From Verrucomicrobiia bacterium (lineage in GTDB: Bacteria; Omnitrophota; Omnitrophia; Omnitrophales; Aquincolibacteriaceae): a stretch of 64,000 nucleotides of DNA. The notes beneath the pieces were generated by a model, which did not search any database, was not told where the DNA came from, and was given only the letters and a program-made list of their open reading frames with translations. Shown here piece after piece: positions 13,331-40,293 of this stretch (the first letter of the stretch is position 1; every line of letters starts with the position of its first letter). The DNA lies in the NCBI GenBank assembly GCA_035495615.1, contig DATJFP010000097.1:4495-68494 (forward strand), given 5' to 3'. Both the position numbers and the translations under genes were made by a program.

Positions 13331-13336
13331 GAAAAC

Positions 13337-16758: not shown

Positions 16759-16866
16759 GGGATGGCCTGCTTTTTGCTTTAATCAAAGGCAAGGAACCTT
16801 GGAGAGCCGGCATTTCTCTGCTAAGCTAGGGGGGTTTTTCGCCGATAATTCAGGCTCGGATAGGAC

Positions 16867-19362: not shown

Positions 19363-19653
19363 TTCCGCCCGTCTCCTCTTCTGCCCCTCTAACTGCTTTT
19401 GTTTTCGAGACTTGCAGGCCGAACCCTGTTTCCCGGCGCGGTTTTATAAGGAAACTCTTTACGCTATTCTCAGGGTTCCACGGCTGATTTTCTGATTCCA
19501 TAATAAAAGAAGAAGTGTATACTAATCAGTCCCGGACCCTGCCTCCGGGATGCTCGGGTTCATTGTGATATAAAAGGCATGTTTTTTGCTTTGTAAATCA
19601 TCAAGCCCTCAGATTTAAATTGCAAAAAATCTGGTCTAATCGGGGAAGTTCCC

Positions 19654-20748
19654 ATGGCTCCGCTACGCATGAAAAAAACAGACAAAGTGAAAGAATCGCA
19701 GCCTGCCAAGAAGATTTCCGCCAAGACCAAACCCGCCGCGCGTTTGCAGAAAAAACCCGAAGAAAAAAAACTTCCCGTCCGCCGCAATCTCGTCGCCGAA
19801 GCGCGCCTGAAGGCCGCGCTGCCGTCCAAGCCGCTCAGAACTCCGGCCAAGGCCGCTAAGGAAACGCTGACTTCCCCGGAAATTTTCGGGCCGGCCAAAT
19901 CCGCGCCTGATGCGGCCTCCGTGCGTGAAATTTTCAAGATGCCGGCGGAACTGCCGGCCAATTACGGCGATAACATGATTTACCTGCTCGTGCGCGACCC
20001 GTATTACCTTTACACGTATTGGGAAATCCAGAAGGACCATCAGGAGCGGACGCTCGCGAAACTCGGCGGCAATTGGGCGGACGTCCGGTCCATCCTGCGC
20101 ATTTATGACACGAGCGACAAAAAAAGCGCCGCGTCTTTTTTCGACATCGAACTCCAGAACATGGCCGTCAACTGGTTCATTAATGTAGAACCGGGCCGCA
20201 ATTATGTCGTAGAAATCGGACTGCTGCATAAAGACGGCCGGTTTCTGGCGCTGGCGCGATCGAACGAAGTCGCCACGCCGCGCGCGTCTGTCTCCGACGT
20301 GCTGGACGAAGAATGGATGGGCCTGGATTTTGAAAAGCTCTTTGCCCTGTCCGGCGGTTTCCACGCGGGCAGGAGCTCCTCCGAAGACGTCAAGGAATGG
20401 CTGCAGAAGCACATCCAGGCGGGCATTTCTTCGGGATCCGGCGGGAGCATCTCGAGCCTTTCCAGCCCGGTCAAAGGAAAGCAGCGCGGCTTCTGGTTCG
20501 TGCTGGATTGCGAAGTCATCGTCTACGGCGCCACCGAACCTGACGCCGCCGTGACGTTCCAGGGCCGTCCCGTGAAGCTGCGTCCGGACGGCACGTTCTC
20601 TTTCAGGTTTTCCCTCCCGGATGGAAAGTTCGTATTCGACGCGCGCGCGGTTTCGGCCGACGGCCTGGAAGAGCGCGTGATTACCCCCACCGTGCAAAGG
20701 ACCACGGACCGACCGGCCCCCGTCATCAAATCTGAAGAAAAGGTGTAA
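19654..20748 (+). CDS. DUF4912-domain protein with basic low-complexity N-terminus
   Basis: A Lys/Pro/Ala-rich N-terminal tail is followed by YLLVRDPYYLYTYWEI and the rest of a DUF4912-like domain. Lies directly upstream of a GH57 gene. Confidence 0.5.
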   Translation: MAPLRMKKTDKVKESQPAKKISAKTKPAARLQKKPEEKKLPVRRNLVAEARLKAALPSKPLRTPAKAAKETLTSPEIFGPAKSAPDAASVREIFKMPAELPANYGDNMIYLLVRDPYYLYTYWEIQKDHQERTLAKLGGNWADVRSILRIYDTSDKKSAASFFDIELQNMAVNWFINVEPGRNYVVEIGLLHKDGRFLALARSNEVATPRASVSDVLDEEWMGLDFEKLFALSGGFHAGRSSSEDVKEWLQKHIQAGISSGSGGSISSLSSPVKGKQRGFWFVLDCEVIVYGATEPDAAVTFQGRPVKLRPDGTFSFRFSLPDGKFVFDARAVSADGLEERVITPTVQRTTDRPAPVIKSEEKV

Positions 20749-20755
20749 GGTCGTC

Positions 20756-22339
20756 ATGGAAAAAGGGCTTTTGTCCATCATCTTGCATGCCCACTTGCCT
20801 TTCGTGCGGCATCCCGAGCACGAATATTTCCTGGAAGAAAATTGGTTTTACGAGGCGATCACCGAGACTTACGTCCCGCTGATCAACATGTTCGAAGGCC
20901 TGGAAAAAGACAGGGTGGCGTGCCGCATCACCATGTCGCTCACGCCAACACTGATTTCGATGCTGCGGGACGGCCTGCTCCAGGATCGTTACGTACGCCA
21001 CATCGACAAGCTGATCGAACTGGCCAACAAAGAGGTGGAACGCACCCGGTTCCAGCCGGAATTCAACGAAACCGCGCTTCATTATTATTGGCATTTTACG
21101 CAGGCGCGGGAGACTTTTGTGAACCGCTACGGCAGGGACCTCACCACCGCGTTCAAGAAATTCCAGGACGCGGGGCTGCTCGAAATCATTACCTGCTCGG
21201 CCACGCACGCGTTTCTCCCGCTCAATCACCGGACCGGCGCTTCGGTGCGCGCGCAGATTTCCACCGCGGTCCGGCAGTATGAAGACGTGATGGGGCGCAG
21301 GCCTGCCGGCATCTGGCTTCCCGAATGCGGCTATTATCCCGGCGTGGACTCGTTCCTCAAGGAAGAGGGCATCCGCTATTTCCTGGTCGACACGCACGGG
21401 CTTCTCTACGCGTCGCCGCGTCCCAAGTACGGCATTTTCGCGCCGGTCTATTGTCCGTCGGGCGTGGCGGCTTTCGGGCGCGACGTGGAATCTTCCAAGC
21501 AGGTCTGGTCCGCCATCGAAGGCTATCCCGGCGACGCGGACTACCGCGAATTTTACCGCGACATCGGCTTTGACCTCGACTACGACTACATCAAGCCCTA
21601 CATTTCTCCCGACGGTCTGCGGGTCAATACAGGCATCAAGTATTACCGCATCACGGGCTCGAACCACAAGCAGCCTTATGTCCGTTCGCGCGCCGTGGAA
21701 AAAGCCGCGAGTCATGCCGGCAATTTCATGTACAACCGCGAAAAGCAGGTGGAATACCTGTTCGAATTCCTCGGGCGCAAGCCGGTCATCGTGGCGCCCT
21801 ACGACGCGGAACTCTACGGCCACTGGTGGTATGAAGGCCCCGAGTTCCTGAACTTTCTCATCCGCAAAGTCGCGTTCGACCAGAAGACGGTACGCCTGGC
21901 CACGCCGTCGGACTACCTGAGGGAATATCCGGTCAACCAGGTTTCCACACCTTCCACGTCGAGCTGGGGGTACAAGGGTTACGCGGAAACGTGGCTGAAC
22001 GACACCAATGGCTGGATCTACAAGCATCTGCACAAGGCGGCGCTGCGGATGAGCGAATTGGCCAACCGCTTCAAGGATCAGGATCCGCTGAAGCAGCGGG
22101 CACTCAACCAGGCCGTGCGCGAACTCTTTCTCGCGCAGTCGAGCGATTGGGCTTTCATCATGCATACCGGCACCATGGTCCCGTACGCGGAAAAAAGGAC
22201 CAAGGACCACATCCTCAATTTCACCAAGATCTACGACGACCTGATGCAAAACCAGGTCAACGAAAGCTGGCTGGCGGAATTGGAAAGCAGGGACAACATT
22301 TTCCCCAAAGTGGATTATCACGTCTTCTGCGGGGAATAA
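20756..22339 (+). CDS. glycoside hydrolase family 57 protein (GH57 1,4-alpha-glucan branching-enzyme-like, DUF1957 C-terminus)
   Basis: The N-terminus SIILHAHLPFVRHPEHE…ENWFYEAITETYVPLI is characteristic of GH57 branching enzymes. 527 aa. Confidence 0.7.
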   Translation: MEKGLLSIILHAHLPFVRHPEHEYFLEENWFYEAITETYVPLINMFEGLEKDRVACRITMSLTPTLISMLRDGLLQDRYVRHIDKLIELANKEVERTRFQPEFNETALHYYWHFTQARETFVNRYGRDLTTAFKKFQDAGLLEIITCSATHAFLPLNHRTGASVRAQISTAVRQYEDVMGRRPAGIWLPECGYYPGVDSFLKEEGIRYFLVDTHGLLYASPRPKYGIFAPVYCPSGVAAFGRDVESSKQVWSAIEGYPGDADYREFYRDIGFDLDYDYIKPYISPDGLRVNTGIKYYRITGSNHKQPYVRSRAVEKAASHAGNFMYNREKQVEYLFEFLGRKPVIVAPYDAELYGHWWYEGPEFLNFLIRKVAFDQKTVRLATPSDYLREYPVNQVSTPSTSSWGYKGYAETWLNDTNGWIYKHLHKAALRMSELANRFKDQDPLKQRALNQAVRELFLAQSSDWAFIMHTGTMVPYAEKRTKDHILNFTKIYDDLMQNQVNESWLAELESRDNIFPKVDYHVFCGE

Positions 22340-22367
22340 CCCCCGTTCAAACCGAAAGGAGCACGAC

Positions 22368-22589
22368 ATGCGAGATGAATATAATGCCATCGGCGAAGCC
22401 GCCGGAAAAATCTACCGCGCCCTCGAACAGGGGGAACAGGCAGTTTCCAAACTGCAGAAAGCCTCCCAGGTCAGCGATGAAGCGCTTTTCAATCAGGCGC
22501 TCGGCTGGCTCGCGCGCGAAGAGAAAGTCACGTTCAAGGCCGGAAAGACGCCGAAAGTGGCGCTTTGTTCCGCCGGAGCGGTCCGCTAA
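22368..22589 (+). CDS. small hypothetical protein (possible winged-helix)
   Basis: 73 aa ORF between the two GH57 genes. An SD-like aaaggagc lies 8 nt upstream. No motif recognised with confidence. Confidence 0.3.
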   Translation: MRDEYNAIGEAAGKIYRALEQGEQAVSKLQKASQVSDEALFNQALGWLAREEKVTFKAGKTPKVALCSAGAVR

Positions 22590-22755
22590 TCCGCGGCAGG
22601 GGAGAGATTCCTGTTCGCGGGAATCTCTCCTTGTCCGTGTCCCCAAGCCCCCAACGGGCTCGAAGCAGTTTCTTTTTGCAATTCCAGCGTTCCTTCAGCA
22701 TAATCTTTCAGGGACGTCCCTTCACCGTTATATCCCAGGCATTTAGGAATCGTTC

Positions 22756-25254
22756 ATGACAAAACCGGTCTGCATTTGCTTTCACGGGCATTTTTACCAG
22801 CCCCCGCGCGAAAATGCCTGGATCGAAGACATCGAACGCCAGGAAAGCGCCGCCCCTTTCCACGACTGGAACGAGCGCATCTATTCCGAGTGCTACCTCC
22901 CCGGCGCGCGCGCCCGCGTCATCGGCCACGACGGCAAGATCGTGGACATCGTCAGCAATTACGAAAAAATGAGTTTCAACTTCGGGCCCACGCTCATGTC
23001 CTGGATCGAGATCAAGCATCCGGACACCTATCAGGCCATCCTCCAGGCCGACCGGCACAGCATGAAGATGCACCAGGGGCACGGCAACGCCATCGCTCAG
23101 GCTTACAATCACGTGATCCTGCCGCTCGCGAATGCGCGCGACAAAAAAACTCAGGTGCACTGGGGCCTGCGGGAATTCCGGCACCGTTTCGGGCGCGAGG
23201 CCGAGGCTATGTGGCTTCCGGAAACGGCCTGCAATGAAGAAACTCTGGAGGCGCTGGTGGAAGAGGGCGTGAAGTTCATCCTCCTCGAGCCGCATCAGGC
23301 CGAAGAAGTGAAGCCGCTTGCCGGCGGCGAATGGCGCGGCGTGGGTTCCGGACAGATCGACCCGCGCCATGCTTACCGCTGCTTCCTCAAGAAAGACCCG
23401 TCCAAGCACATCGACATTTTTTTCTACGACGGCCCGATTTCCAAGTCCATCGGTTTCGAAAGCGTGCTTGCCGACGCCAAGCACCTCATGCACCGCATCG
23501 AAGGCGCGATCGTGGACCACGGACACAAGCCGCAGCTCATCCATGTCGCGACCGACGGCGAAACTTACGGCCATCACAAGCCGTTCGGCGAGCGCAGCCT
23601 CGCGTACTTCCTTTATACGATGGCCCGGGAGAAGGGCTACCGCGTCGTCAATTACGGGGAATACCTCGAAGAGAACCCGCCCGCGTTCCAGGTGCGCATC
23701 AAAGCCGGCGAGAACGGCGAGGGCACGTCCTGGAGCTGCGCGCACGGGGTCAAGCGCTGGAAGGAGCATTGCGGGTGCCGCGGCGGCGGGCCGGGGGAAT
23801 GGACGCAGCATTGGCGCAAGCCTTTGCGCGACGCGCTCGACTGGCTGCGTGATGAGCTCGCAAAAGTTTTCGAGGCGCAGGGCGCGCCGTACCTCAAGGA
23901 CGTCTGGGAGGCGCGCGACGATTACATCCACGTGATCCTCGACCGCAAGCCGCCCGTCGTTAAGGCGTTCTTCACGCGGCATGCCACGCACGCGCTCGCG
24001 CGCAAGGACATGACCTTGTGCCTGCAGCTTTTGGAGATGCAGCGCCACGCCATGCTGATGTACACGAGCTGCGGCTGGTTTTTCACCGAGATCTCGGGCA
24101 TCGAGACCGTGCAGATCCTGCAGTACGCGGCCCGCGCCATGCAGCTTGCCCAGAGCGTCTCGGGCGTGAACCTGGAGCCGCAGTTCCTGGAAAAGCTCGC
24201 GCTCGCCAAAAGCAACGTCGAGGCTTACAAGGACGGCCGCGGCGTTTACGAGCAGCTGGTCAAGTCGAGCATCGCGACGCTCGAGCACATCGTAAGCTAT
24301 TACGCGATCGGGTCGATCTTCGAGGATTATTACCCGCACAAGGAAAACCTCGATATTTACAGCTTCAACCTGCAGGTGGTCCAGCAGCGCAAGGAATCGT
24401 CCGGGAACGTGACGCTCAACATCGGCCGCGTGAAGATCACCTCCAAGGTCACGCTCGACGAGAAAGACCTGATCTTCGTGGCCGTGCAGATCGGGCTTTA
24501 CGATTTCCGCTGCTCGGTCAAGGCGTTCGCGACCGACCGGGAACTGGAGAAGCTGGACCAGGAACTCTTCGACGAGCTGCACACGGGACACATCATCGAG
24601 CTGTTCAAGACGCTCGACCATTACTTCGGGGAAAAATATTTCGCGCTGAAAGACCTGCTGCTGGAAGACCGCCTCAGGATCATCACGCGGCTCACGCGCG
24701 AGCAGATCGAAAAGGTCAGCAAGTTTTACGAGCGGGTCTACGACGAAAACCGCAAGATCAACGAGATCTACCGCTCCATCAACCTGCCTATCCCTTCGGA
24801 ATTCCGTTACGCGGCCGAGCACGTGCTCGCCAAAAGGCTGATGGAGGTGCTCCAGCAGCTTTCCAAACAGGGATTCCCGATCCGCAGGATGACCGCGGCA
24901 AACCGCATCATCGACGCGGCCAAATCGCTGAATGTGGAAATCACCAAGGGGCAGATCACCGAGTACCTGAATGCCGAACTGCGGCGGACGATCCAGCGGT
25001 TCGTCCAGAAGCCGGGGACAGACCTCATCCAGGAATGCCTGTGCATCTACAAACTTTCCAAAAGGATCGGGATCGAACTCAACCCCATGGACGCCCAGGA
25101 CGATCTGTTTCAGCGGGTGCGGCATTGGCGGGAAAATCCCCAGGACATTCCGCCGGCCATCATGCCGTACGCCAATCAGTTTCTCCAGCTCATGGCGTCG
25201 CTGCATCTTTCGACCGCAGAATTGAAAAAACTGATGCAGAAATCGATGGCTTAA
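22756..25254 (+). CDS. GH57-family alpha-glucan-active enzyme with C-terminal DUF3536-like extension
   Basis: N-terminal CICFHGHFYQPPRE GH57 signature. 832 aa with a long helical C-terminal region. Confidence 0.65.
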   Translation: MTKPVCICFHGHFYQPPRENAWIEDIERQESAAPFHDWNERIYSECYLPGARARVIGHDGKIVDIVSNYEKMSFNFGPTLMSWIEIKHPDTYQAILQADRHSMKMHQGHGNAIAQAYNHVILPLANARDKKTQVHWGLREFRHRFGREAEAMWLPETACNEETLEALVEEGVKFILLEPHQAEEVKPLAGGEWRGVGSGQIDPRHAYRCFLKKDPSKHIDIFFYDGPISKSIGFESVLADAKHLMHRIEGAIVDHGHKPQLIHVATDGETYGHHKPFGERSLAYFLYTMAREKGYRVVNYGEYLEENPPAFQVRIKAGENGEGTSWSCAHGVKRWKEHCGCRGGGPGEWTQHWRKPLRDALDWLRDELAKVFEAQGAPYLKDVWEARDDYIHVILDRKPPVVKAFFTRHATHALARKDMTLCLQLLEMQRHAMLMYTSCGWFFTEISGIETVQILQYAARAMQLAQSVSGVNLEPQFLEKLALAKSNVEAYKDGRGVYEQLVKSSIATLEHIVSYYAIGSIFEDYYPHKENLDIYSFNLQVVQQRKESSGNVTLNIGRVKITSKVTLDEKDLIFVAVQIGLYDFRCSVKAFATDRELEKLDQELFDELHTGHIIELFKTLDHYFGEKYFALKDLLLEDRLRIITRLTREQIEKVSKFYERVYDENRKINEIYRSINLPIPSEFRYAAEHVLAKRLMEVLQQLSKQGFPIRRMTAANRIIDAAKSLNVEITKGQITEYLNAELRRTIQRFVQKPGTDLIQECLCIYKLSKRIGIELNPMDAQDDLFQRVRHWRENPQDIPPAIMPYANQFLQLMASLHLSTAELKKLMQKSMA

Positions 25255-25269: not shown

Positions 25270-26448
25270 ATGTGGGATACCCTCCGCCAGATCGGATTGG
25301 CGGGCCTTGTCGACATCGGCTTCATGTCGCTTATCCTCTACAGCGTCCTCGTCTGGATCAAGAGGACGCGGGCCGCTTTTGTCCTGACGGGCATTATCAT
25401 CATCTTCGGCGTTTACCTCCTGTCACGGCAATTCAACCTCGTCCTCACGTCCACGATCCTGGAAAATTTCTTCGCCATCATCCTGGTGGCGCTGGTCGTG
25501 ATCTTCCAGGAAGAACTGCGGCATTTTTTCGAGCGCGTCGCGGTCTTCAGCTTCAATCCGAGGCTCCGCTTCCAGGGACGCAACCAGCTCTCGCGCGAGG
25601 AAACCGAGATTCTCGTGCGCACGCTCATGGACCTGGCCAAAGAGCGCATCGGCGCGCTTGTCGTGCTCAAAGGCAGCGACATCCTGGCGCGGCACCTGGA
25701 AGGCGGCATACGCCTCGGCGGCGAGATCAGCGAGGCGCTTTTGAAAAGCATCTTCGATCCGCATTCCATCGGCCATGACGGCGCGGTCGTCGTCGAAAAA
25801 AAGAAGATCACGCAATTTTCGGTTTACCTGCCGCTGACCAAAAACCTCCGGAACCTCGGAAAGGGCGGGACGCGCCACGCCGCGGCGCTCGGCCTCAGCG
25901 AATTGTGCGACGCGATGTGCCTTGTCGTTTCGGAGGAGCGGGGCACAATCTCCATGGCCCGCCACGGCAACATCTCGGTCGTGCGCAACGCGGAAGAGCT
26001 TGCCGTCATCATCGAGCGCTTCTACCAGGAAACCGACCCGCGCAAAGAGCCGCGGCCCTGGCAGGATTTCTTCAAGCAGAACAGCCAGGAAAAGCTCGTG
26101 GCATTTCTCCTGGCCCTCGCTTTCTGGTTCGTCTTCGCCCACGGCTCCGAACCGTCCAGCCGTTCTCTCCAGATCCCGGTTTCCACGGAAAAACTGTCCT
26201 CGCCGTGGAGCGTCGAAGTCATGGAGCCCAAGGAAGTGGAGCTGACCTTCCGCGGGCCGCGCAAGGCCTTTTATTTCTGGGGCCACGGCAAAGTCAGGAT
26301 GTCCCTGGGCGTGCGCAAGGAAGAGGGCGTCCACAAGATCCGGCTGACCCCCCAGAATTTTTCTTTTCCCAAAGACCTCGTGCTCGAATCCATCAATCCC
26401 GATGAAGTGCGCCTCAACGTCGACAACACGCAGACGGGCAAGGGATGA
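25270..26448 (+). CDS. cdaA: diadenylate cyclase CdaA (c-di-AMP synthase) with extra C-terminal TM + YbbR-like domain
   Basis: Three N-terminal TM helices and a DAC domain with GTRHAAALGLSE (compare GTRHRAA) and the DGA.V motif. About 120 aa of additional C-terminus carry a fourth TM (LVAFLLALAFWFVFA) and a beta-rich region. Confidence 0.7.
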   Translation: MWDTLRQIGLAGLVDIGFMSLILYSVLVWIKRTRAAFVLTGIIIIFGVYLLSRQFNLVLTSTILENFFAIILVALVVIFQEELRHFFERVAVFSFNPRLRFQGRNQLSREETEILVRTLMDLAKERIGALVVLKGSDILARHLEGGIRLGGEISEALLKSIFDPHSIGHDGAVVVEKKKITQFSVYLPLTKNLRNLGKGGTRHAAALGLSELCDAMCLVVSEERGTISMARHGNISVVRNAEELAVIIERFYQETDPRKEPRPWQDFFKQNSQEKLVAFLLALAFWFVFAHGSEPSSRSLQIPVSTEKLSSPWSVEVMEPKEVELTFRGPRKAFYFWGHGKVRMSLGVRKEEGVHKIRLTPQNFSFPKDLVLESINPDEVRLNVDNTQTGKG

Positions 26449-26762
26449 TCAAAAAAGCGACGCCGAGGCCCGGTTATTTTTCAGGCCTTGCTTATCTAAT
26501 TCCCGGCCGCCCCCCCAGAGAAAAAGAAGTGAATTTATTTTCCGGAAAGCCGTCCTTTTAGAGGTTGGCAATGACTAGGCCCCGTGCTTTGGCAGGTTAT
26601 AAGACGCAGGAAGGCCGGGCGTAAACTCTTTGTAAATGACTGCGTATGCGGCTTTTGGGAAATTTTAAGGGCCAAAAATTCATTGCAATTTAAAGGAGCA
26701 ATGATCAGAATAGCGCTTCTATGAACACACTCTTCATCCCCCCCTCGCCTCGGAGGTTTTCC

Positions 26763-27374
26763 ATGAAAAAGATTTTTTCCATCGCCTTTTTTGTCCTCAT
26801 TCTGGGTTTGCCCGCGTCGTCGCAGGCCGCGACCTACAATCTGGATGCAGACCACACCACCATCAATTTCAAAGTCCATCACCTGATTTCGTGGGTGAAC
26901 GGCCAGTTCAAACAGTTTGAAGGCACATTCGATTACGAACCCGGCAAGCCGGAGACCTGGAAGGCGAAGGCCACGATCCAGGCCGCGAGCATCGATACCG
27001 GCGTGGCGCCGCGCGACAAACACCTGCGCAGTCCGGAGTTTTTTGACGTCGATCAATTTCCCACGCTCACATTCGAGAGCACCAAGGCCACGGCGGTCGA
27101 CGACAAGCACGCGAAGCTCGAGGGCAACCTCACAATTCACGGCGTGACCAAGCCGGTCGTGCTCGACGTTGAGATCCTGGGCGAAGTCAAAGATCCGTGG
27201 GGTAATCAGCTCGCGGGCTTCACCGCGACCACCACCATCAACCGCAAGGATTTCGGGCTGACCTGGAACAAGACCGTGGAAACCGGACAGCTCCTTGTGG
27301 GCGAAGACGTGCAGATCACGATCGAAGTTTCCGGCATGAAGGCAGGGGCCGAGCAGGCGCCGGCGGCATCATAA
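26763..27374 (+). CDS. YceI-family periplasmic protein
   Basis: Signal peptide MKKIFSIAFFVLILGLPASSQA, then DADHTTINFKVHHLISWVNGQF…LTIHGVTKPVVLDVE, typical of YceI-like lipid/polyisoprenoid-binding proteins. The ATG at 26763 is chosen over the track start at 26721. Confidence 0.7.
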   Translation: MKKIFSIAFFVLILGLPASSQAATYNLDADHTTINFKVHHLISWVNGQFKQFEGTFDYEPGKPETWKAKATIQAASIDTGVAPRDKHLRSPEFFDVDQFPTLTFESTKATAVDDKHAKLEGNLTIHGVTKPVVLDVEILGEVKDPWGNQLAGFTATTTINRKDFGLTWNKTVETGQLLVGEDVQITIEVSGMKAGAEQAPAAS

Positions 27375-27445
27375 GAAGAGCAGAGAAAAAGTCAGTGCAG
27401 CAACATCCGGGATTAAAGCCCCGGGTGAAGTCAACCAGCAGTACA

Positions 27446-27452
27446 AAGGAGG
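27446..27452 (+). promoter_or_regulatory. Shine-Dalgarno AAGGAGG 6 nt upstream of the precursor ATG
   Basis: A perfect AAGGAGG precedes the ATG at 27458. This supports the short 88-aa precursor over the longer ORF from 27395. Confidence 0.5.
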
Positions 27453-27457
27453 ATTCA

Positions 27458-27724
27458 ATGGAAAAGAACAAGAAGAAGGCTTTATTGGCTGCTTCCATGG
27501 CCGGTCTCATGGCCGTCGCGGGCGCTGTGATTCTGCCCGGACTCGCCCATGCGGAAGGCGTTCAGTGCCATGGCGTGAACAGCTGCAAAGGCACGGGCGA
27601 ATGCGGCGGCAAGGGTCATAGCTGCGCCGGTAAGAACGCCTGCAAGGGCCAGGGCTGGATCACGGCTGCCGATGACGCTGCCTGCACGGCTCAGGGCGGC
27701 ACGCTGAAAGAAGCGGCTGAATAA
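27458..27724 (+). CDS. Cys-rich secreted peptide, candidate bufferin-like RiPP precursor (DUF2282 / BUF_6/12Cys-like)
   Basis: 88 aa with signal peptide MEKNKKKALLAASMAGLMAVAGAVILPGLAHA. The core has six Cys in a regular C-x-G-x-N/G-x-C-K-G array (CHGVNSCKGTGECGGKGHSCAGKNACKGQGW…AAC). It sits immediately upstream of the DUF692 enzyme. Confidence 0.5.
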   Translation: MEKNKKKALLAASMAGLMAVAGAVILPGLAHAEGVQCHGVNSCKGTGECGGKGHSCAGKNACKGQGWITAADDAACTAQGGTLKEAAE

Positions 27725-27742
27725 TTAAACGCCGAGGTTGAC

Positions 27743-29458
27743 GTGAAAGCGCAACAGGACAACAGTGCCTCCCCGTCGTGGCCGGTTCTTGGCTGCGGCG
27801 TGGGCCTCCGTTCGGACCACTACAATGATGTTCTGCGCGAGTGGCCGAAAATGGACTGGTTCGAGGCCGTCACGGAAAACTACATGGATTCCGGCGGCAG
27901 GCCTCTCCACATCCTGGAGCAGGTACGGCGCCGTTATCCTGTTGCGCTTCACGGCGTTTCCCTTTCCATCGGGTCCATGGACCCGCTCCATCCCGGTTAC
28001 CTCCAGCGCCTGAAGGCGCTCGTCGAACGCATCGAACCTTTCGCCGTTTCCGACCACCTGTGCTGGTCCGGCATCGATACCCAGCAATTGCACGATCTTC
28101 TGCCGCTGCCGTACACCGAAGAGTCGGTGAGGCACGTGGTGCGGCGCGTGGACCAGGTGCAGGAACTCCTGCGCCGTCCCATCCTTCTGGAAAACGTTTC
28201 CACGTATGTGACCTACAAGCATTCCACGATGAAGGAATGGGATTTTCTCAGTGAAGTGGCCGCGCGTTCGGGCTGCGGCATCCTGCTCGACCTCAATAAT
28301 ATTTACGTGAACTCCCGCAATCACGGCTTTGATCCCAAGGAATACCTCGACGCAATCGACGGCTCCAAGGTCGCTCAGTACCACCTCGCCGGCCACACGG
28401 ACATGGGCGATTTTCTTTTCGACACGCACACCGGCGAAATCATCAATCCCGTCTGGGACATTTACAAAGACGCGCTTGCAAGGTGGGGGAAAGTCTCCAC
28501 GCTGATCGAATGGGACGAAAAGATCGAGGAATATTCGAAGCTCTCAAGGCAGGCGGAAATGGCGCGCGCGCTTTACGACCGTGCCGGCACCGCGCGGCAG
28601 AAGGCGCCGGTCCGCGTATCGCTCGATAAAGCGCCTGAGGCTGGGCCCTCGCTTCTGGAATCGCAGCGCTGGATGAAAAGCTACATCCAGCCGCACGGCT
28701 CCCAGGAACCTCATCAGGAAGGATCGTTACTTAATCGCCAGGGCCGGGCGAGCGGGGAAGAACGCATGGATGTTTACGCGGGCGGTTATGCCGCGCGCAT
28801 GCGCGACGCGCTGGACGATGTTTACGAAGCGCTCAACCGCATCCTGGGCGAAAAACTTTTCTGGGAGATGGCGCAGGCTTACGCCGCGGAATACCCGTCG
28901 CAGGAATATAACCTGAGCCTCGCCGGCCGGCATTTGCCGGAATTTCTCCAAAAGCAAAATCCGATCACGGCAAAGTTCCCGTTCCTGCCGGACCTCGCCG
29001 CGCTGGAAAGGCTTGTGGCCGCGTCGTTCCATGCGTTCGACGAAAAGCCGCTTGCGCCGTCGGACCTTGCCGGGCTTTCGCCGGACGATTTCGAGAGGAT
29101 CCGCATTTTCTTCCAGCCTTCGGTGGCCGTCATGAAGTCCGCGTGGCCGGTTTGCGATTTGTGGGAAGCAAGGAATGCGCCCGCGGGAAAACTTAACGTC
29201 CCATTCGAAGGCCGGCCCCAGAACGTGCTCGTCGGCCGCCGGGACCTGAAAGTCCATTGCCAGGTCCTCGACGGCCGCCAGGTCCTGCTCCTGGAACTCC
29301 TGCTTTCCGGAAAAACCCTGGGCGAGGCGTGCGAAATCCTGCTGCAGGGCGGGGACGAACCTCTGCCCGTGTCCGAGTGGTTCGCGCAGTGGATGGCCGC
29401 GGGCTTTTTGCGCGGCTACGAGATCGCGCATCCGGCCGACGCGGCCGGAAACGGCTAG
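27743..29458 (+). CDS. fused MNIO (DUF692/MbnB-like TIM-barrel) - DUF2063 (MbnC/BufC-like) RiPP-maturation protein
   Basis: The N-terminal ~290 aa match UPF0276/DUF692 closely: GVGLRSDHY, WFEAVTENYMDSGGRPL, HGVSLSIGS, ISDHLCW, LLPLPYTEE, ILLENVSTY, GILLDLNNIYV, YHLAGH. The C-terminal ~270 aa look like DUF2063. GTG start. Confidence 0.8.
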   Translation: MKAQQDNSASPSWPVLGCGVGLRSDHYNDVLREWPKMDWFEAVTENYMDSGGRPLHILEQVRRRYPVALHGVSLSIGSMDPLHPGYLQRLKALVERIEPFAVSDHLCWSGIDTQQLHDLLPLPYTEESVRHVVRRVDQVQELLRRPILLENVSTYVTYKHSTMKEWDFLSEVAARSGCGILLDLNNIYVNSRNHGFDPKEYLDAIDGSKVAQYHLAGHTDMGDFLFDTHTGEIINPVWDIYKDALARWGKVSTLIEWDEKIEEYSKLSRQAEMARALYDRAGTARQKAPVRVSLDKAPEAGPSLLESQRWMKSYIQPHGSQEPHQEGSLLNRQGRASGEERMDVYAGGYAARMRDALDDVYEALNRILGEKLFWEMAQAYAAEYPSQEYNLSLAGRHLPEFLQKQNPITAKFPFLPDLAALERLVAASFHAFDEKPLAPSDLAGLSPDDFERIRIFFQPSVAVMKSAWPVCDLWEARNAPAGKLNVPFEGRPQNVLVGRRDLKVHCQVLDGRQVLLLELLLSGKTLGEACEILLQGGDEPLPVSEWFAQWMAAGFLRGYEIAHPADAAGNG

Positions 29459-29494: not shown

Positions 29495-31624
29495 GTGACT
29501 TCGAGCTCCCAATCCAATCCCAACGGTTCGAGCTCCTGGAAAGTTTTCGCTTACATCGCCGTTCCCGCGGCCCTTGCGTTTCTTCTCATCCTCAAGGTGT
29601 TCCTGATCTCCGGATGCTTTGCCTTCGACGCGAATGACGACGCGGGCTACACGTTCCTGAGCCTTGCCGCCGCGCGCCATGTGCTCCGGCAGGGCGCGTT
29701 GCCGCTTCTGAATCTCTATCATGCTTTCGGGACGCCGATCCCGGGCGACTGCCTCACGTTTCCGTTTGCCCCGCAGGCCGTCACGTATGCGTTCCTGCCC
29801 GGCAAGTACGCGATGACCGTGAACCGTTTCGTGCTGGCCTGGATTACCGTGGCCGTCCTGACGCTCTATTACCGCCGGCGCCTGCCGCATCCCTGGGCCT
29901 CGTTCTGCGCGGTGCTCGCGTTTCTCACCCCGGGCGCGCTGTGGAATTTCGCGCACCATCACTATCAGACCGCGCTTCTTTTCTCCGCGGCGCTTTTGCT
30001 TTTCGAGGAGCGCTTCATCGAAAACGGGAAAAAGCGCGACGCGGTTTTCTTTTACGCGGCCGCGGTGCTGATGATCCAGAGCCTCAGCATGATGATCGTG
30101 CTGATCGCCGTTTTTTTCTCGGCGGCGAACGCCTTTTTCGAAGCCGGAAAGGAAAGAAGGCCCCGCGCGCTGCGCATCGCCGCGCTTCTTGCCGCGGCCT
30201 TTGTTTTCCAGATTCCGGAAGTCCTGTCCTTCCTGGCGCAGGCCGCGGGAAGCCTGCGCGCGTCTTCGGGGTTCGGCATCGAAATCCCGCCGCGCCGGAT
30301 GCTGGCAGGCATCCTGGGCGGCCTCACGGATTTCCGGCATCTCCACGAAGCCTGGATTTATTTTCCGCTGCCGCTCATGGCCGCGGTGGCCGCGGGATGG
30401 AAAAAGACGGGCCGAGGCGCCGTGAAAATTCTGACCCTTGGCGTCCTGCCGCTTTTCGGCGTTACGGTGCTGCTCATGTGCCAGCGCCTTTATTGGGCGA
30501 TCCCGTATTTGAAATCGACGGACATCACGCGGTTCTGGTGGGTCTCCAATATTTTCCTGATGGCGGCGCCGGGCGCTTTTTTTGCCGGCCTGAAGGAAAG
30601 GACGGTGCGGCAGGCCGCCCTTTTTGCTTCCGCCGTCTTCGCGGGCTTTCTGCTTTCGCAGCTCGCCGTCGATTACCGGACGCTCGACCGTTTCGTTCGC
30701 GAACCGGTTTTTATTTTCACGGTGCTGGCGATGGCGTATGCCGCTTTTCTCGCGCTGGGCGGAGAAGCGAAGGCCGCGGCCGTTTCCAAAATCTTTTCCG
30801 CGCTCATGGCGCTGACGGTGCTTGCCGCGCTGTACCCGGTGGTCCGCCATACCCTGGGCTTCGAGGATCTGAAAAAATGCCGCGTCTCGCATTGGTTTTC
30901 CGACGCCGCGGACCAGGATTACGCGCTGCAGCCGCTCGTGCCGTTTCTCCAGCCGGGTTCGCGCATCACGCACGAAGCGCACATGGTTTACCGCCACGAC
31001 GCGAAGGTGAATGCCAACGGCCTTTTCGGCGCGCAGCCCGTGACGCCGCTGCATTACCGCCCTTTTGACGAATATCTCATCGGCCGGGGGCTCGTACAGA
31101 AAGAAACGGACACGTACGGGCTCGGCCAGTACCATTTTATCCAGCCGTGGAGGGCGGACGCTCTCCGCGATCTCGGCATCCGCTACGTGGTGCAGGGCGG
31201 ACGTAACCCGCAGGCCGAAAGCGAGGGCTGGAAAAACGTGACGAATTACGCCGTGCTTTCCCTTTATGAAAATCCGCGGCCCGTCAGCCTGGCGTATCTC
31301 GAAGAGGGAAGCTCGAGGACGGCGCTGCCGCAGGAAGCGATCCGGTTCCGCCGCAACGGCCTGGAAGCCGCGCTGCCGGCGCTGGAGAGGGAAGAAGAAC
31401 TCGTGGCGGCTTTTGCGGCAAGGCCCGGATGGAAAGCGCGTGTCGATGGAAACCTTCGGGCCCTGGACTCTGCGGCCGGGGAAGCGCCGCTTCTCCGCGT
31501 GAAGGTCGGGCCCGGCAATCATGCCGCCTCTTTCGATTACGAACCGTTCAGCCTGGGACAGGTTTTGCTTTGCGCGATTTTATCGCTGGGAATTTTGGGG
31601 CTCGCGCTTCGGCGCGCGTCTTGA
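29495..31624 (+). CDS. YfhO-like polytopic membrane protein (GT-C-like glycosyltransferase family)
   Basis: 709 aa with many TM helices. The C-terminal GWKARVDGN…LRVKVGPGNHAASFDYEPFSLG resembles the YfhO C-terminal signature (W.A.VDG…P.G.H.V.F.Y.P). GTG start. Confidence 0.45.
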   Translation: MTSSSQSNPNGSSSWKVFAYIAVPAALAFLLILKVFLISGCFAFDANDDAGYTFLSLAAARHVLRQGALPLLNLYHAFGTPIPGDCLTFPFAPQAVTYAFLPGKYAMTVNRFVLAWITVAVLTLYYRRRLPHPWASFCAVLAFLTPGALWNFAHHHYQTALLFSAALLLFEERFIENGKKRDAVFFYAAAVLMIQSLSMMIVLIAVFFSAANAFFEAGKERRPRALRIAALLAAAFVFQIPEVLSFLAQAAGSLRASSGFGIEIPPRRMLAGILGGLTDFRHLHEAWIYFPLPLMAAVAAGWKKTGRGAVKILTLGVLPLFGVTVLLMCQRLYWAIPYLKSTDITRFWWVSNIFLMAAPGAFFAGLKERTVRQAALFASAVFAGFLLSQLAVDYRTLDRFVREPVFIFTVLAMAYAAFLALGGEAKAAAVSKIFSALMALTVLAALYPVVRHTLGFEDLKKCRVSHWFSDAADQDYALQPLVPFLQPGSRITHEAHMVYRHDAKVNANGLFGAQPVTPLHYRPFDEYLIGRGLVQKETDTYGLGQYHFIQPWRADALRDLGIRYVVQGGRNPQAESEGWKNVTNYAVLSLYENPRPVSLAYLEEGSSRTALPQEAIRFRRNGLEAALPALEREEELVAAFAARPGWKARVDGNLRALDSAAGEAPLLRVKVGPGNHAASFDYEPFSLGQVLLCAILSLGILGLALRRAS

Positions 31625-32377: not shown

Positions 32378-33919
32378 TTATTTCCTTTTGAACAGGATGT
32401 ACGGGCCCCAGGACTGCACGGGCTGGTAGTGCGAAAACAGGAATTCTTCCAATCCTAAATAGACTAGCATAATGTTCAACTTGAAGGGGCCATTGTCCTT
32501 GTAAGTCAGGATCCAGTCGGGCGGATTGTTCTGGATGTTGTGCGAAACCGCTTCCTGCTGTTTGCCGGGCTGCGGCTGGTCCTGGAATTTGAACTGGAAG
32601 CTGACGCCGGGATACGGCACGCGGCCGGTCAGCGCGTACAGGACGTGCAGGTTCGTGAGCACGAGAAAGGAATCTTTCTGGGGAATGTGGTCGCGGACAT
32701 ACGGCGCGATGGCCTCCAGGTTCCGGCCCCAGATCTCGTAAACGTGCCAGCCCTGCAGCGGCCCTTCCTGCATCGTGTAATCGCAGCAGCGCCCGTATAT
32801 CGAATGCGTCTTCCGGCCGCTGATCGATTCGCAGGCGTAGCCCACGCAGCGCGCGGTCTGGAACAGCACGAGAAAAGAAAGCAGCGCGGCCCCAGCCTTG
32901 AAAAGAGGGGATTTCCTTCCGCCTTCGGCGGCATCGCTTTGGAAGATTACGCAGAAGCCGAGCGCGACGATCATGCCCAGAAGCGGCATGTGGCCGGGAT
33001 GGCGGTGCGAGCCGGTAATGTGCGAGAAAATCGCGGTCATGGCCACGCCCGCCAGCAGCACGTAGAATTCGCGGAGTTTCCAGAGGCTGCGCCGCGCGAG
33101 CCAGGTTCCGGCCAGAAGCGGCAGCCAGTAGCCGTGATTCAGCCATTCGCCCGGCGAAGTCATGCGCTGGAAGCGGCTGCCCATATTGTTATTGTAGTAA
33201 TCGAAGTTGTTGACGAGAAAGGCCGGAATGTCGCCGATCAGATGCAGGCCGAGGAGCGCCGTGGCCCAGCAGCCGGCGGCGTAGCCGAAAAATCCCCAGG
33301 CCCGGAACTCGCGGTTGACCAGAAAAAAGACCAGGAAGACGAAGCCGAACAGGAGTCCGTCATTGAGCTTCGTCAGTACCGCGCTCAGCGCAAGAAATCC
33401 GGTGGCGAAGCCGGTCCAGAACGCAGCCTCGCGGCTCGTGAAAGGCATGCGCGCCAGAAGCAGGCAGGTCCCGACGATGCCCCAGAAGCTGACGTAAGTG
33501 TCGTACGTGGGAAAGGCGTAAAACCAGTTGAAGCCGCACGCGGTCATGAGCGCTGCGAGAAAGGCGAACGGCCAGGGAATCCATTTCTTCGCGGCGGCAT
33601 ACACCACCAGAGTCGCGAGCGAGCTGGTCACGACGAGCAGCGTCAGGATCGCGGCCTTGCCGAATCCCAGGATCTTGAAAAGCAGGGCGAGTGTGTCCAC
33701 GTAAAGGGGCACGGCGTGGAAATGAAAATCCACGTAAAGGCGCTGGCCCATCGTGATGCGCCAGGCCGTGTTCAAAAAGCCGCCGTAATCTTCGGGATCG
33801 AACCCGTACAGCATCGCCTTCTTGAGCAGCGCGAAATTCACGAGCAGGAGCGCGGCGAGCGCGAGCCATTCCGCGAGCGCGGGATATCTTGCCGTATTTT
33901 GGACCGTCGGCTTGTTCAT
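32378..33919 (-). CDS. GT-C-fold membrane glycosyltransferase (ArnT/PMT/GT39-like)
   Basis: 513 aa with about 12 TM helices. N-terminal loop GFDPEDYGG. Overall architecture matches polyprenyl-phosphate-sugar-dependent GT-C enzymes. Its stop is 3 nt from the MTase start. Confidence 0.45.
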   Translation of the reverse strand: MNKPTVQNTARYPALAEWLALAALLLVNFALLKKAMLYGFDPEDYGGFLNTAWRITMGQRLYVDFHFHAVPLYVDTLALLFKILGFGKAAILTLLVVTSSLATLVVYAAAKKWIPWPFAFLAALMTACGFNWFYAFPTYDTYVSFWGIVGTCLLLARMPFTSREAAFWTGFATGFLALSAVLTKLNDGLLFGFVFLVFFLVNREFRAWGFFGYAAGCWATALLGLHLIGDIPAFLVNNFDYYNNNMGSRFQRMTSPGEWLNHGYWLPLLAGTWLARRSLWKLREFYVLLAGVAMTAIFSHITGSHRHPGHMPLLGMIVALGFCVIFQSDAAEGGRKSPLFKAGAALLSFLVLFQTARCVGYACESISGRKTHSIYGRCCDYTMQEGPLQGWHVYEIWGRNLEAIAPYVRDHIPQKDSFLVLTNLHVLYALTGRVPYPGVSFQFKFQDQPQPGKQQEAVSHNIQNNPPDWILTYKDNGPFKLNIMLVYLGLEEFLFSHYQPVQSWGPYILFKRK

Positions 33920-33947: not shown

Positions 33948-36164
33948 TTAGGGCGCGCGTCTCAGCGGCATCAAGGCGTCCGCGGCGAAAACAAAGAGTG
34001 CCAGCGTGAAAAAGATACCATACGCGGCCACGGTAACGCTGCGGAAACTTTCGCCGTCATTCCAATAATATAATTTCACGCGATGCCTGCCGTGCGGAAC
34101 AAAAACAGCCTTGAAGCCGACGTTCGCGTGGTTGACCGCCGTTTGTTTTCCGTCGACGGACGCATGCCAGCCCGGATGCCAGGCATCCACGTAATAAAGC
34201 CAGGCGCCTTTCGGATAAGTGACGTCCGCCTCCGCCTCCAGGCGGTTGAAAGAAAAGTCCGTGACCTTGACGCGGCCCGCTTCCGCATTCGGCGCGGGAG
34301 TCCAGGATGCCTGGATTTCCGCGGGGATGCCTTCAAGGAAAACTTTTTCCGGCTCGCGATTCAGCCGGAAAAGGCTTTGTCCGGCCGACTCGGTGCTGGG
34401 CGAAAACTCGACGTCGGTGACAAGCCGCAGCTTCGGCCCTTCGCAGCCCACGGTGCCGAAGCACGAGCTGCGCGCGATCATGAAAAACTTTCCGAACCAT
34501 TCATTCCATTCGAAGTTGGTGTACTCCTCGGCGTGATAAGTGTCAAAGAAAAGGAAGTTGTAGATTTCCTTCTGGAACCGCGCCGGGCTGCGGTTCAAAA
34601 GCTCTTCGGCCTCGACCATGCGGGGCTGGGTTCCCTTCAGGCCCCGCGCCTCCTGATATTGAAACGGGAAAACCTCGAGAAGTTCGCGGCTCAGGCTGGC
34701 GATGCGCATGGGCCAGGTCTTGAAAAAAGCGGCCTGGAAAAGATAAAGGTTTGCCGTAAGGGCGGCCACGGCAATCAGTCCGCTCAAGCGGGGAAAACGG
34801 AAGGCCAGGAGAACCGCGAGGCCGCCGGCGGCCGTGATCACGAGGCCCTGCGAAAAAACCTGCGGCCACAACACCCAGTTGTCCGCCTGCATGGCGTCGA
34901 ACGGCAGGCGCATCCAGACCATGAACCCGAGGACGACGGCAAGGCTGGCCGGAAAAGCGAGGAGCACGCGCCGGCGCGCGGAGGAACCGGCCTCCGCCGC
35001 ATGCGCCAGGAAATGATCGAGGCCGAAACCCGCAAGCAAAATAAGAAACGGCCGCATCAGGCCGCCGAGAATGCCCACGTAACGGAAAAGGCGGATGGGC
35101 GGAAAAATTTCGTAGATGAATTCCGCGATGGGCGTGTTTGCGCCGAGAGAGAGCGCGCCGATCAGAAAGAGCGACGCGGCGAGCGCCGCATGAAAAAGAT
35201 TCCTTACACAAACGAGGCCGGTCAGGAGAAAGGCAAGCGTGAGCCCGCCGACGAAAACGCTCATCTTCAGCGGCACATAGGACGGGTAAAGGGCCGTCAG
35301 GAATTTTTCCGGCCCGGTATAGCCGCCGTGCTGGAGGAAAAGCTGCAGCGGCACCGTGAAATCGGAGCTTCTTCCTTGCTGCATGCTGTCGATGTGGTCG
35401 TACATGTGAAGCGCGAAAAGGACAAACAGGCCGGCCACGGCGAGAAAGGCCGCGGCGCCCGCGGCATTAGGCCCTTCCGGCGCGAAGAGTGTTTTGAAGA
35501 GCGTCCTTTTGCGGAAGATCATGAAAACGAGAAAGACGGAGACGATTAGCATGTTGAGCGCCGCGAAATAAGGCGGAATCCCGAATTGCACGGTGACCGA
35601 CACGAGGCCCGCAAGCCAGAGGTAAACCGCTTTTTCTCTTTTATAGAAAAGGACCAGGAAGTAAAGGATGAGCGGCAGCAGGTAGAAGATCCGGAAATTC
35701 CAGTAGACGTTCGTCAGCCAGATCGTGCTTCCCACCATCGCGACGGAGCAGAAAAGGACGGAGGCGCGTTTTTTGAAAAGTTCGCCGCCCAGAAGGGAAG
35801 TGCCGAGAACGAGCATGCCTTCTTCCAGCAGGATGGAAAATTTAAAAAGGAAATTAACGTCCCGGATGCGCAGAAGGCCGCCCGCGAGGCCCGCGAAGTA
35901 TTGGGCCGGGGTGAAGGTGTCGAGCTGCGCGTAGTCCATCGATATCCCATAAACGCCGTACGGGAACCACTGGGCCAGCTCATGATGGAAGAAAAAGTTG
36001 GTGTAATAGGTGTAAAAGCGCTGGAAAACGTAGATGGTATCGCCCTGGTACCAGACATGGCGGTCCCAGACCGGGAAGCGGAAGAGGGCCCAGGCCAGCA
36101 GCAGGAATAAAACTTCGGGCGCCCGGAAAAGGGCTTTTTTGTCGAAGCTGAGGGTTGTCTTCAT
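33948..36164 (-). CDS. YfhO-family large membrane protein
   Basis: 738 aa. C-terminal VDAWHPGWHASVDGKQTAVNHANVGFKAVFVPHGRHRVKLYY matches the YfhO C-terminal signature, and the N-terminal half is polytopic. Confidence 0.5.
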   Translation of the reverse strand: MKTTLSFDKKALFRAPEVLFLLLAWALFRFPVWDRHVWYQGDTIYVFQRFYTYYTNFFFHHELAQWFPYGVYGISMDYAQLDTFTPAQYFAGLAGGLLRIRDVNFLFKFSILLEEGMLVLGTSLLGGELFKKRASVLFCSVAMVGSTIWLTNVYWNFRIFYLLPLILYFLVLFYKREKAVYLWLAGLVSVTVQFGIPPYFAALNMLIVSVFLVFMIFRKRTLFKTLFAPEGPNAAGAAAFLAVAGLFVLFALHMYDHIDSMQQGRSSDFTVPLQLFLQHGGYTGPEKFLTALYPSYVPLKMSVFVGGLTLAFLLTGLVCVRNLFHAALAASLFLIGALSLGANTPIAEFIYEIFPPIRLFRYVGILGGLMRPFLILLAGFGLDHFLAHAAEAGSSARRRVLLAFPASLAVVLGFMVWMRLPFDAMQADNWVLWPQVFSQGLVITAAGGLAVLLAFRFPRLSGLIAVAALTANLYLFQAAFFKTWPMRIASLSRELLEVFPFQYQEARGLKGTQPRMVEAEELLNRSPARFQKEIYNFLFFDTYHAEEYTNFEWNEWFGKFFMIARSSCFGTVGCEGPKLRLVTDVEFSPSTESAGQSLFRLNREPEKVFLEGIPAEIQASWTPAPNAEAGRVKVTDFSFNRLEAEADVTYPKGAWLYYVDAWHPGWHASVDGKQTAVNHANVGFKAVFVPHGRHRVKLYYWNDGESFRSVTVAAYGIFFTLALFVFAADALMPLRRAP

Positions 36165-38139: not shown

Positions 38140-39099
38140 ATGAATAAAGAAAAAGCCAAACAGATTTACCACGATGTTTACCTGGTCCGCCGCTGCGAAG
38201 AAAAAATCCGCGACGAATACGCCTCGGACGCGATGAAAACGCCCGTGCATCTGCACGTGGGCGCCGAAGCCATCTGCGCGGGCGTCCTGGCCGCGCTTCC
38301 CAAAGGCCTCAAGGTTTTCGGGACTTACCGCAATCACGGGCTCTACCTGCCGCTCACGCAGGACCCGAAATCGTTTTTCGCGGAGCTGTACGGCAAGGCG
38401 ACAGGCTGCGCCCAGGGCAAGGCCGGTTCCATGCATCTCACCGCGCCCGAGCACGGGCTTTTTCTCACGTCCGCGGTCGTGGCCACGACGATTCCGGTGG
38501 CCGTCGGCGCCGCTCTCGCGCATCAGTACCGCAAAGAAAAAAACGTAGTGGCCGTTTTCTTCGGCGACGGCGCCGTGGAAGAAGGTGCGTTCTGGGAAAG
38601 TCTGAATTTTGCCTGCCTGAAACAACTTCGCGTCTTCTTTGTCTGCGAGGACAACGACCTGGCCATCCACACGCCGACCGCGCATCGCCAGGGCTTCAAG
38701 TCCATTCCCGAAGCGGCCGCGGGCTTCCGCTGCCACATGGCCACCGCGGACGGATGGGATCCGGAAACAGTTTACGCCGCGGCTTCCGGACTTCTTCAGA
38801 GAATGGAAGCCGAACCCAAGCCCTGCTTGCTGCATTTCAAATATTTCCGTTATCTCGAGCACGTAGGCGTGGGCGAGGATTTCAAATTCGGCTATCGCCC
38901 CAAGCCGGACGAGCCCGCGCTGCAAAAGTATGATCCTCTGAAAGCTGCCGAGCGCATGGCCGCCAATCACGGCCTTTCGGATTCCGACATCCAGAAGATC
39001 AACCAGGAAGTGGACGCACTTATCGAGGAGAGCGTGGCCAAGGCCAAGACCGACCCCTTTCCCGACGAACAGGAATTCGGACGCGGAGTCATGAGCTGA
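38140..39099 (+). CDS. thiamine-diphosphate-dependent dehydrogenase E1 alpha-like subunit
   Basis: A GDGAVEEGAFWESLNFA TPP-binding motif (GDG…N) and VGAEA…YRNHG regions resemble the PDH/acetoin-DH E1 alpha family. Confidence 0.7.
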   Translation: MNKEKAKQIYHDVYLVRRCEEKIRDEYASDAMKTPVHLHVGAEAICAGVLAALPKGLKVFGTYRNHGLYLPLTQDPKSFFAELYGKATGCAQGKAGSMHLTAPEHGLFLTSAVVATTIPVAVGAALAHQYRKEKNVVAVFFGDGAVEEGAFWESLNFACLKQLRVFFVCEDNDLAIHTPTAHRQGFKSIPEAAAGFRCHMATADGWDPETVYAAASGLLQRMEAEPKPCLLHFKYFRYLEHVGVGEDFKFGYRPKPDEPALQKYDPLKAAERMAANHGLSDSDIQKINQEVDALIEESVAKAKTDPFPDEQEFGRGVMS

Positions 39100-40289: not shown

Positions 40290-40293
40290 GGCC

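Follow-up and report, generated by a model that had tools for sequence, protein, structure and literature searches.

The 64,000-nucleotide stretch analysed here (referred to below as the window; part of contig DATJFP010000097.1 of a Verrucomicrobiae metagenome-assembled genome, MAG) carries a three-gene locus, yceI-bufA2-bufBC, which very probably makes a periplasmic metallophore of the bufferin-2 type. Bufferins form the largest group of peptides made by multinuclear non-haem iron oxidases (MNIOs) and are a recently recognised bacterial copper defence. Their definition comes from work on Caulobacter vibrioides (Leprevost et al., PNAS 2024; PMC11626156), and a landscape study of 2025 reported thousands of Buf1 and Buf2 precursors (PMC12452194). 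The locus is a regular member of this large and already known family but has an unusual architecture, with a maturase in which the enzyme BufB and its partner BufC form a single chain, and a conserved YceI neighbour.

The bufferin-2 precursor

The precursor gene bufA2 (27458..27724 on the forward strand, stop codon included) was read from the sequence as running from an ATG at 27458 to a TAA at 27722-27724, and encodes 88 amino acids (aa). The Shine-Dalgarno sequence AAGGAGG (27446..27452, forward strand) lies 5 nucleotides (nt) upstream of this ATG and supports the short start, as had been argued in an earlier note on this DNA. The position 27395 at which that note had opened the locus is merely the mechanical GTG of a longer open reading frame (ORF), with the real start being at 27458. 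It should be mentioned that the NCBI record of the precursor is a 71-aa 'hypothetical protein' (HTL48840.1) counted from Met18, by which the charged N-terminal end of the signal peptide is lost, and that the JGI gene call is the 88-aa form.

The product consists of a signal peptide, MEKNKKKALLAASMAGLMAVAGAVILPGLAHA, followed by the core, EGVQCHGVNSCKGTGECGGKGHSCAGKNACKGQGWITAADDAACTAQGGTLKEAAE. From inspection of the sequence, the signal peptide (aa 1-32; 27458..27553, forward strand) is predicted to be of the Sec type: the n-region KNKKK leads into roughly 20 hydrophobic residues, and cleavage is predicted between AHA and the E that follows; the precursor homologues show the same layout. The core peptide of 56 aa (27554..27721, forward strand) holds six cysteines at core positions 5, 11, 17, 24, 30 and 44, corresponding to residues 37, 43, 49, 56, 62 and 76 of the precursor. 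A full-length match of 66.2 bits was obtained with the curated NCBI model of Cu_RiPP_BufA2 (NF050166, cut-off of 60 bits), with residues 11-83 of the precursor aligned on model positions 4-78 of 79. The secreted, cysteine-rich, bufferin-like precursor claimed in the earlier note is thereby borne out.

The arrangement C.G.N.CKG...C......C.G.N.CKG.G, together with the sixth cysteine, is kept in 28 aligned homologues, with five of the cysteines in invariant columns and the sixth found in all 28. Gene order was read from 80 related loci of species-representative genomes with ORFs called de novo, and a six-cysteine precursor was found to adjoin the enzyme gene in most of them. The array is shared with these peptides, in agreement with the bufferin-type cysteine spacing that had been proposed. 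The BUF_6/12Cys family has been described as having six (or twelve) conserved core cysteines (PMC12452194).

No Pfam match was obtained for the precursor even at E-values of up to 10, PF10048 (DUF2282) included; the earlier note had wrongly given PF09866 as the accession of DUF2282. The EGKCG repeat was absent when the sequence was read. A close homologue, the precursor at 7704-7964 of locus L001 (Omnitrophica MAG JAJVIE010000003.1), scored 70.7 bits with the BufA2 model and 23.1 bits with the Pfam DUF2282/BufA1 model, for which the cut-off is 22.4. As this peptide passes the former model and barely passes the latter, the two families of bufferin precursors lie close to each other.

The single-chain maturase BufBC

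The gene bufBC (27743..29458, forward strand) is separated from the bufA2 stop codon by 18 nt and consists of a single uninterrupted ORF of 571 aa encoding an MNIO maturase together with its partner. It starts with GTG at 27743, with GAGG (27734-27737) standing 5 nt upstream. Four parts were delimited on the forward strand: the MNIO (DUF692/BufB) TIM-barrel domain (aa 17-280; 27791..28582), a poorly conserved linker of approximately 22 aa (aa 281-302; 28583..28648), the helical DUF2063 domain of the partner, opening with the motif PSLxExQRWMK (aa 303-445; 28649..29077), and an RRE-like winged-helix domain for peptide recognition (aa 446-567; 29078..29443).

The N-terminal half had been assigned to DUF692 from the motifs GLRSDHY, WFEAVTENYM, HGVSLSIGS, SDHLCW, LPLPYTEE and LLENVSTY, all of which are present, and the profile comparisons suggested in the earlier note gave matches for both halves and, with the BufA2 model though not with DUF2282, for the peptide. 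PF05114 (MbnB_TglH_ChrH) matched aa 18-277 with 354.6 bits (E-value of 4e-106), and the BufB model NF050167 gave 368.6 bits, well over its cut-off of 310. The models for rival MNIO families all remained under their curated cut-offs, with 251.8 bits for HvfB (NF003818, cut-off 360), 81.9 for ApyH (400), 53.8 for MbnB (TIGR04159, 325) and 31.8 for ChrH (600). As both BufA2 and BufB pass their curated thresholds, the locus pairs a bufferin-2 precursor with a bufferin maturase, and not with an enzyme for oxazolin or methanobactin.

An AlphaFold2 model of the whole protein, fed with 42 homologues, reached a predicted local distance difference test (pLDDT) of 89.4 and a predicted template-modelling score (pTM) of 0.87. 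Its sole dip, to a pLDDT of 63-73, lies around aa 281-300, within the linker, for which the consensus also has no majority residue. A Foldseek search against the PDB returned the DUF692 structure 3bww as top hit (E-value of 1e-17, template-modelling score of 0.87 on the target), followed by TglH and MbnB. The residues of the iron site of MbnB are His54, His90, Glu133, Asp163, Asn166, His192, Asp208, His210 and Glu239 (PMC9060507), and their counterparts in BufBC, located by motif in HMMER alignments, are H70, H105, E150, D183, N186, H214, D227, H229 and E256. None of the nine varies across the alignment of 42 sequences.

For the C-terminal half, PF09836 (DUF2063) matched aa 308-402 with 56.6 bits (cut-off of 27.2), in line with the DUF2063 partner that had been proposed. 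Searches of the PDB by sequence, both with phmmer and with a profile of 18 C-terminal halves, gave no match. The Foldseek result for the whole chain was dominated by the TIM barrel, and the C-terminal half was therefore modelled separately. The fold search with this model succeeded, returning a helical domain followed by a winged helix of the RRE type. By its model, the C-terminal half is a complete type-1 (PME1) partner made up of DUF2063 and RRE. In published descriptions such partners are separate proteins of some 250-260 aa (PMC12452194), so that the form found here, making up the C-terminal part of the 571-aa protein, differs in architecture but not in fold.

Authenticity, spread and origin of the fusion

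The fusion of BufB and BufC is genuine and common. An identical protein is present in NCBI (HTL48841.1, from a Verrucomicrobiae MAG), where the enzyme is annotated plainly as a 'DUF692 family protein', and exactly the same protein was found on an independent Logan contig. At least 120 homologue clusters, the best of those listed, drawn from NCBI, JGI, ENA and Logan, carry the fusion without exception, with lengths of 537-614 aa, both PF05114 and PF09836, and 49-58% identity. The single 571-aa maturase noticed earlier is therefore real, but it is not unique, and the earlier note gave it too much weight. One of the fused homologues is named 'MNIO family bufferin maturase' by NCBI. The nearest 19 genomic loci, belonging to Omnitrophota, Planctomycetia, Eisenbacteria and unclassified MAGs, each have one fused ORF, and further fused loci are L001, L002, L025 and L037. 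In total the fusion occurs in approximately 23 species-level genomes, chiefly of Omnitrophota, Planctomycetota and unclassified MAGs, with many of them being short-read assemblies. In the remoter loci, mostly of Proteobacteria, bufB and bufC are separate genes.

When the MNIO domains were placed in a neighbour-joining tree, the fused forms fell into one clade (which takes in 31 of the 80 loci, leaving 49 for comparison), within which the split forms of L024, L026, L030 and L031 are nested. The bufC gene of these nested split forms begins 5-36 nt before the stop codon of bufB, in a different frame, and its product opens directly with PSLxExQRWMK, the equivalent of aa 303-315 of the window protein. 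The linker of BufBC thus stands where its split relatives have their overlapping stop/start junction. Given this overlap in different frames, a one-base indel and a short linker explain the fusion.

Five sporadic bufB-bufC 'fusions' were also seen in proteobacterial loci. Long-read MAGs are the source of four of these loci (L034, L036, L063 and L065) but not of the fifth (L043). The ORF of L063, the sole one of the five to be inspected, continues past the peptide core in sequence resembling a frameshift, with the precursor apparently fused in as well, and looks like an indel artefact. These five were accordingly discounted as independent fusion events. The four from long-read MAGs are probably indel errors, which for L034, L036 and L065 is a guess.

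YceI as a conserved neighbour

The gene upstream of bufA2, yceI (26763..27374, forward strand), encodes a periplasmic, lipocalin-like protein of the polyisoprenoid-binding YceI family (203 aa; PF04264, 176.8 bits). Its ATG lies behind a GGAGG sequence, and the 203-aa form is the same as that of NCBI record HTL48839.1. The three genes yceI, bufA2 and bufBC are co-oriented with short gaps between them, 83 nt in the case of yceI and bufA2.

A YceI gene is present in 24 of the 31 clade loci; 23 of these have it upstream in the same orientation, and L037 has it downstream. It is co-oriented in none of the other 49 loci, of which L054 has a YceI gene on the opposite strand. Within 5 kb of the enzyme gene, the only genes conserved across the clade loci are those for the enzyme, the precursor and YceI. 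Since nothing else is shared, the linkage of YceI is specific and is not residual synteny, and yceI belongs to a conserved bufferin module in this clade. The earlier note had correctly placed a YceI gene upstream but treated it as a landmark, missing its part in the module.

Approximately 55 main ORFs of the window were scanned for domains, and no DoxX, ECF (extracytoplasmic function) sigma factor, anti-sigma factor or copper-transport/homeostasis gene was recognised among them. The absence of a DoxX-like BufD reported earlier therefore stands for the scanned ORFs; it is not an anomaly, as the C. vibrioides cluster buf2ABC (CCNA_02999-03001) has no bufD and Buf1 can do without DoxX (PMC11626156). 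Two neighbouring genes were considered and rejected as parts of the module. The 709-aa membrane protein downstream (29495-31624), a candidate exporter or substitute for BufD, has no significant Pfam match and no homologue beside the enzyme gene in any of the 80 loci, and stands at the border of an adjoining group of genes for large membrane proteins and sugar nucleotides. The gene for CdaA upstream is present in no related locus.

Some further arrangements were seen around the maturase genes of other genomes. The end of the fused bufBC of L001 is overlapped by 4 nt by a DUF6941 gene, which is followed by a MoxR-DUF58-VWA-BatD operon (9710-17713); this arrangement is absent from the window. ORFs resembling cytochrome-oxidase subunits, as read from their translations, follow immediately after the fused maturase gene in three of the 31 clade loci, including L006 (7776-8689).

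Other genes of the window

Searches of the whole window gave no Rfam matches and no tRNAs. Scans for promoter and terminator consensus sequences and a search for inverted repeats around 26400-27480 returned nothing convincing.

Upstream of the bufferin genes, four tandem paralogous membrane proteins of approximately 570 aa with 44-47% mutual identity are encoded at 9879-16758 on the forward strand, two of which have weak PMT_2 (GT-C glycosyltransferase) matches. They are followed on the same strand by a glycogen-type cluster (16867-25254) encoding a glycogen phosphorylase, a DUF4912 protein, a GH57 branching enzyme and a GH57-DUF3536 protein, and by the gene for the diadenylate cyclase CdaA (25270-26448, 392 aa). 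More than 100 C-terminal residues of CdaA, past the DAC domain, have no Pfam match and are possibly a fused regulatory domain.

Downstream, membrane proteins of 709, 513 and 738 aa are encoded at 29495-31624 on the forward strand and at 32378-33919 and 33948-36164 on the reverse strand. The 513-aa protein, like that of 709 aa, has no significant Pfam match, and the 738-aa protein has just a YfhO tail. The three flank a methyltransferase gene and a sugar-nucleotide gene cluster and are unlinked to bufferin genes in other genomes. Within a sugar-nucleotide cluster, E1-alpha-like and transketolase/E1-beta-like genes lie around a DegT aminotransferase gene (38140-41334, forward strand), a layout which suggests a thiamine-dependent step in the synthesis of an unusual sugar. 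Further downstream (58083-59160, forward strand) there is a type IV pilin-like gene with an FTLVEIMIV N-terminal motif, followed by BolA-like and monothiol glutaredoxin-like ORFs, as read from their translations.

Discussion

The closest of the described systems is buf2ABC of C. vibrioides. Its Buf2 product shows a mass shift of -16 Da, i.e. -4 Da on each of the four central cysteines, with CysI and CysVI being unmodified and probably joined in a disulfide; Sec export and cleavage of bufferins have been demonstrated experimentally, and both buf operons of this organism are copper-induced and copper-protective (PMC11626156). The locus of the window likewise has a Sec-type, six-cysteine precursor of the BufA2/BUF_6/12Cys kind beside a BufB-type MNIO and a DUF2063-RRE partner, in a cluster with neither DoxX nor sigma and anti-sigma factors, and its product is also predicted to carry four thiooxazoles and one disulfide. 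Unlike buf2ABC, it has B and C on one polypeptide with a linker and a conserved yceI gene upstream, and its host belongs to the Verrucomicrobiota and not to the Proteobacteria.

With the Buf1/DUF2282 systems (buf1ABCD and the 'gig' operons) the locus would appear to share the enzyme-partner pair, a predicted small precursor fold, the chemistry and the periplasmic location. Buf1 precursors differ in having four conserved cysteines and PF10048, and their clusters usually contain DoxX and often sigma/NrsF genes; sigma and anti-sigma genes have been reported in Buf1 but not in Buf2 clusters (PMC12452194). The oxazolin system HvfABC of Haemophilus influenzae resembles that of the window in using an MNIO and a PME1 partner on a Sec-exported cysteine peptide, but HvfA has EGKCG repeats and the window enzyme scores below the HvfB cut-off. 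An engineered HvfB-HvfC fusion, joined in the same order of B then C, was reported in a preprint of July 2026 to be active and to outperform the co-expressed pair (10.64898/2026.07.17.739211), from which it follows that a fusion of enzyme and partner works in principle. That protein is man-made and has no linker, whereas the fusion of the window is natural and has one. MbnBC, the methanobactin enzyme, and TglHI are two-chain systems, solved as heterodimers of MNIO and partner (7tcr, 7fc0, 7dz9, 8hi7), with other substrates, products and leader logic; the precursor of the window has a signal peptide, and the leader-core peptide MbnA has none.

The preprint names MovX and ChrH as the only natural exceptions to the two-protein rule (10.64898/2026.07.17.739211). 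In the landscape study, neither YceI nor a fusion of MNIO with DUF2063 comes up in the main text, and one remark in the supplement notes YceI and cytochrome b genes in a single Legionella cluster (PMC12452194). Full-text literature searches for the fusion, and for YceI together with MNIO terms, returned nothing beyond this Legionella remark. The natural BufB-BufC fusion and its link to YceI thus appear to be undescribed in the literature that was reached, and are plainly visible in the databases.

By analogy with these homologues, the following course of events is proposed. BufA2 would be translated with its Sec signal peptide and held in the cytoplasm by the C-terminal DUF2063/RRE module of BufBC, while the N-terminal multinuclear non-haem iron TIM barrel would carry out O2-driven four-electron oxidations. 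The four central cysteines, Cys43, Cys49, Cys56 and Cys62, are the predicted sites of conversion to 5-thiooxazoles, with a loss of 4 Da apiece; PME1-dependent MNIOs broadly install this heterocycle (PMC13097082). The peptide would then be exported via Sec, its signal peptide being removed after AHA32, and the first and last cysteines, Cys37 and Cys76, are predicted to pair as a disulfide after export. The small folded product would chelate copper in the periplasm, perhaps along with other soft metals, and thereby buffer metal stress. The fusion would fix the stoichiometry of enzyme to partner at 1:1.

A number of points weigh against this reading. The HvfC model gives the C-terminal half just 26.5-29 bits against a cut-off of 142, and with this low score and no solved relative found by profile, the assignment of the partner rests on Pfam and fold. 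The bufferin model leaves the role of the conserved YceI unexplained. As no copper or sigma gene was recognisable in the window, its metal context comes from proteobacterial homologues only, and the host is an uncultured organism represented by a MAG. The predicted sites were assigned by analogy with Caulobacter Buf2 (PMC11626156), and the chemistry, the choice of modified cysteines, the order of the steps, the metal and any role of YceI are all extrapolated from characterised homologues.

It is conceivable that a member of the same family, probably with the same heterocycle chemistry, handles a metal other than copper, or a stress of the redox or envelope kind, in a function tied to YceI instead of copper buffering. 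YceI is the only conserved neighbour in a clade spanning several phyla, copper genes were not found among the scanned ORFs, and MerC-bufferin fusions and gold-induced bufferin operons suggest roles beyond copper (PMC12452194). Against this, the core retains the full BufA2 cysteine array and passes the BufA2 equivalog model, each thiooxazole peptide characterised so far binds copper (PMC13097082), and the YceI linkage by itself defines no function; a role outside copper buffering is therefore considered unlikely. A different modification, be it the oxazolone-thioamide of methanobactin or another MNIO reaction, or a set of modified cysteines unlike that of Caulobacter Buf2, is very unlikely. The BufB cut-off was exceeded and the MbnB, ApyH and ChrH scores fell far under theirs, and the products of PME1-dependent MNIOs have recently been reassigned to 5-thiooxazoles (PMC13097082; 10.64898/2026.07.17.739211), which outweighs the variety of reactions catalysed by MNIOs, the difficulty of distinguishing the two heterocycles and the low identity to solved or characterised enzymes (31% to 3bww, about 20% to MbnB).

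That the fusion is an assembly artefact, with a frameshift or lost stop codon in the metagenome hiding separate bufB and bufC genes, is scarcely credible. The split relatives, with their overlap of a few bases in different frames, could indeed be fused by a single indel, and the long-read proteobacterial cases, of which L063 looks frameshifted, may be of this kind, but the identical protein from two independent assemblies, the uniformly fused and divergent best homologues, the occurrence in many short-read genomes, the dedicated linker and the confident model of the whole chain all contradict it. A bufferin-2 metallophore locus with an authentic single-chain maturase is thus preferred. A bolder and rather doubtful extension of this reading is that yceI-bufA2-bufBC represents a distinct and hitherto undescribed subclass of bufferins. 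Its main carriers would be Omnitrophota, Planctomycetota, the Verrucomicrobiae MAG of the window and further lineages outside the Proteobacteria; the periplasmic YceI lipocalin would be a working partner of the mature peptide, and the single chain an evolved answer to the weak interaction of B and C that had to be overcome in the laboratory by engineering. If so, YceI might couple thiooxazole and metal chemistry to membrane isoprenoid quinones, in the place that DoxX takes in Buf1.

The locus extends bufferins to an uncultured Verrucomicrobiae genome. Work on MNIOs is hampered by enzyme-partner complexes that are weak or obligatory, so that in the 2026 preprint HvfB and HvfC had to be joined artificially before a well-behaved and more active enzyme was in hand. 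Natural single-chain BufB-BufC proteins with a linker, of which there are hundreds, are ready candidates for structural and spectroscopic studies, useful to MNIO enzymologists. The linkage to YceI offers a concrete, testable starting point in the search for an accessory function of bufferin systems and bears on the poorly understood YceI family.

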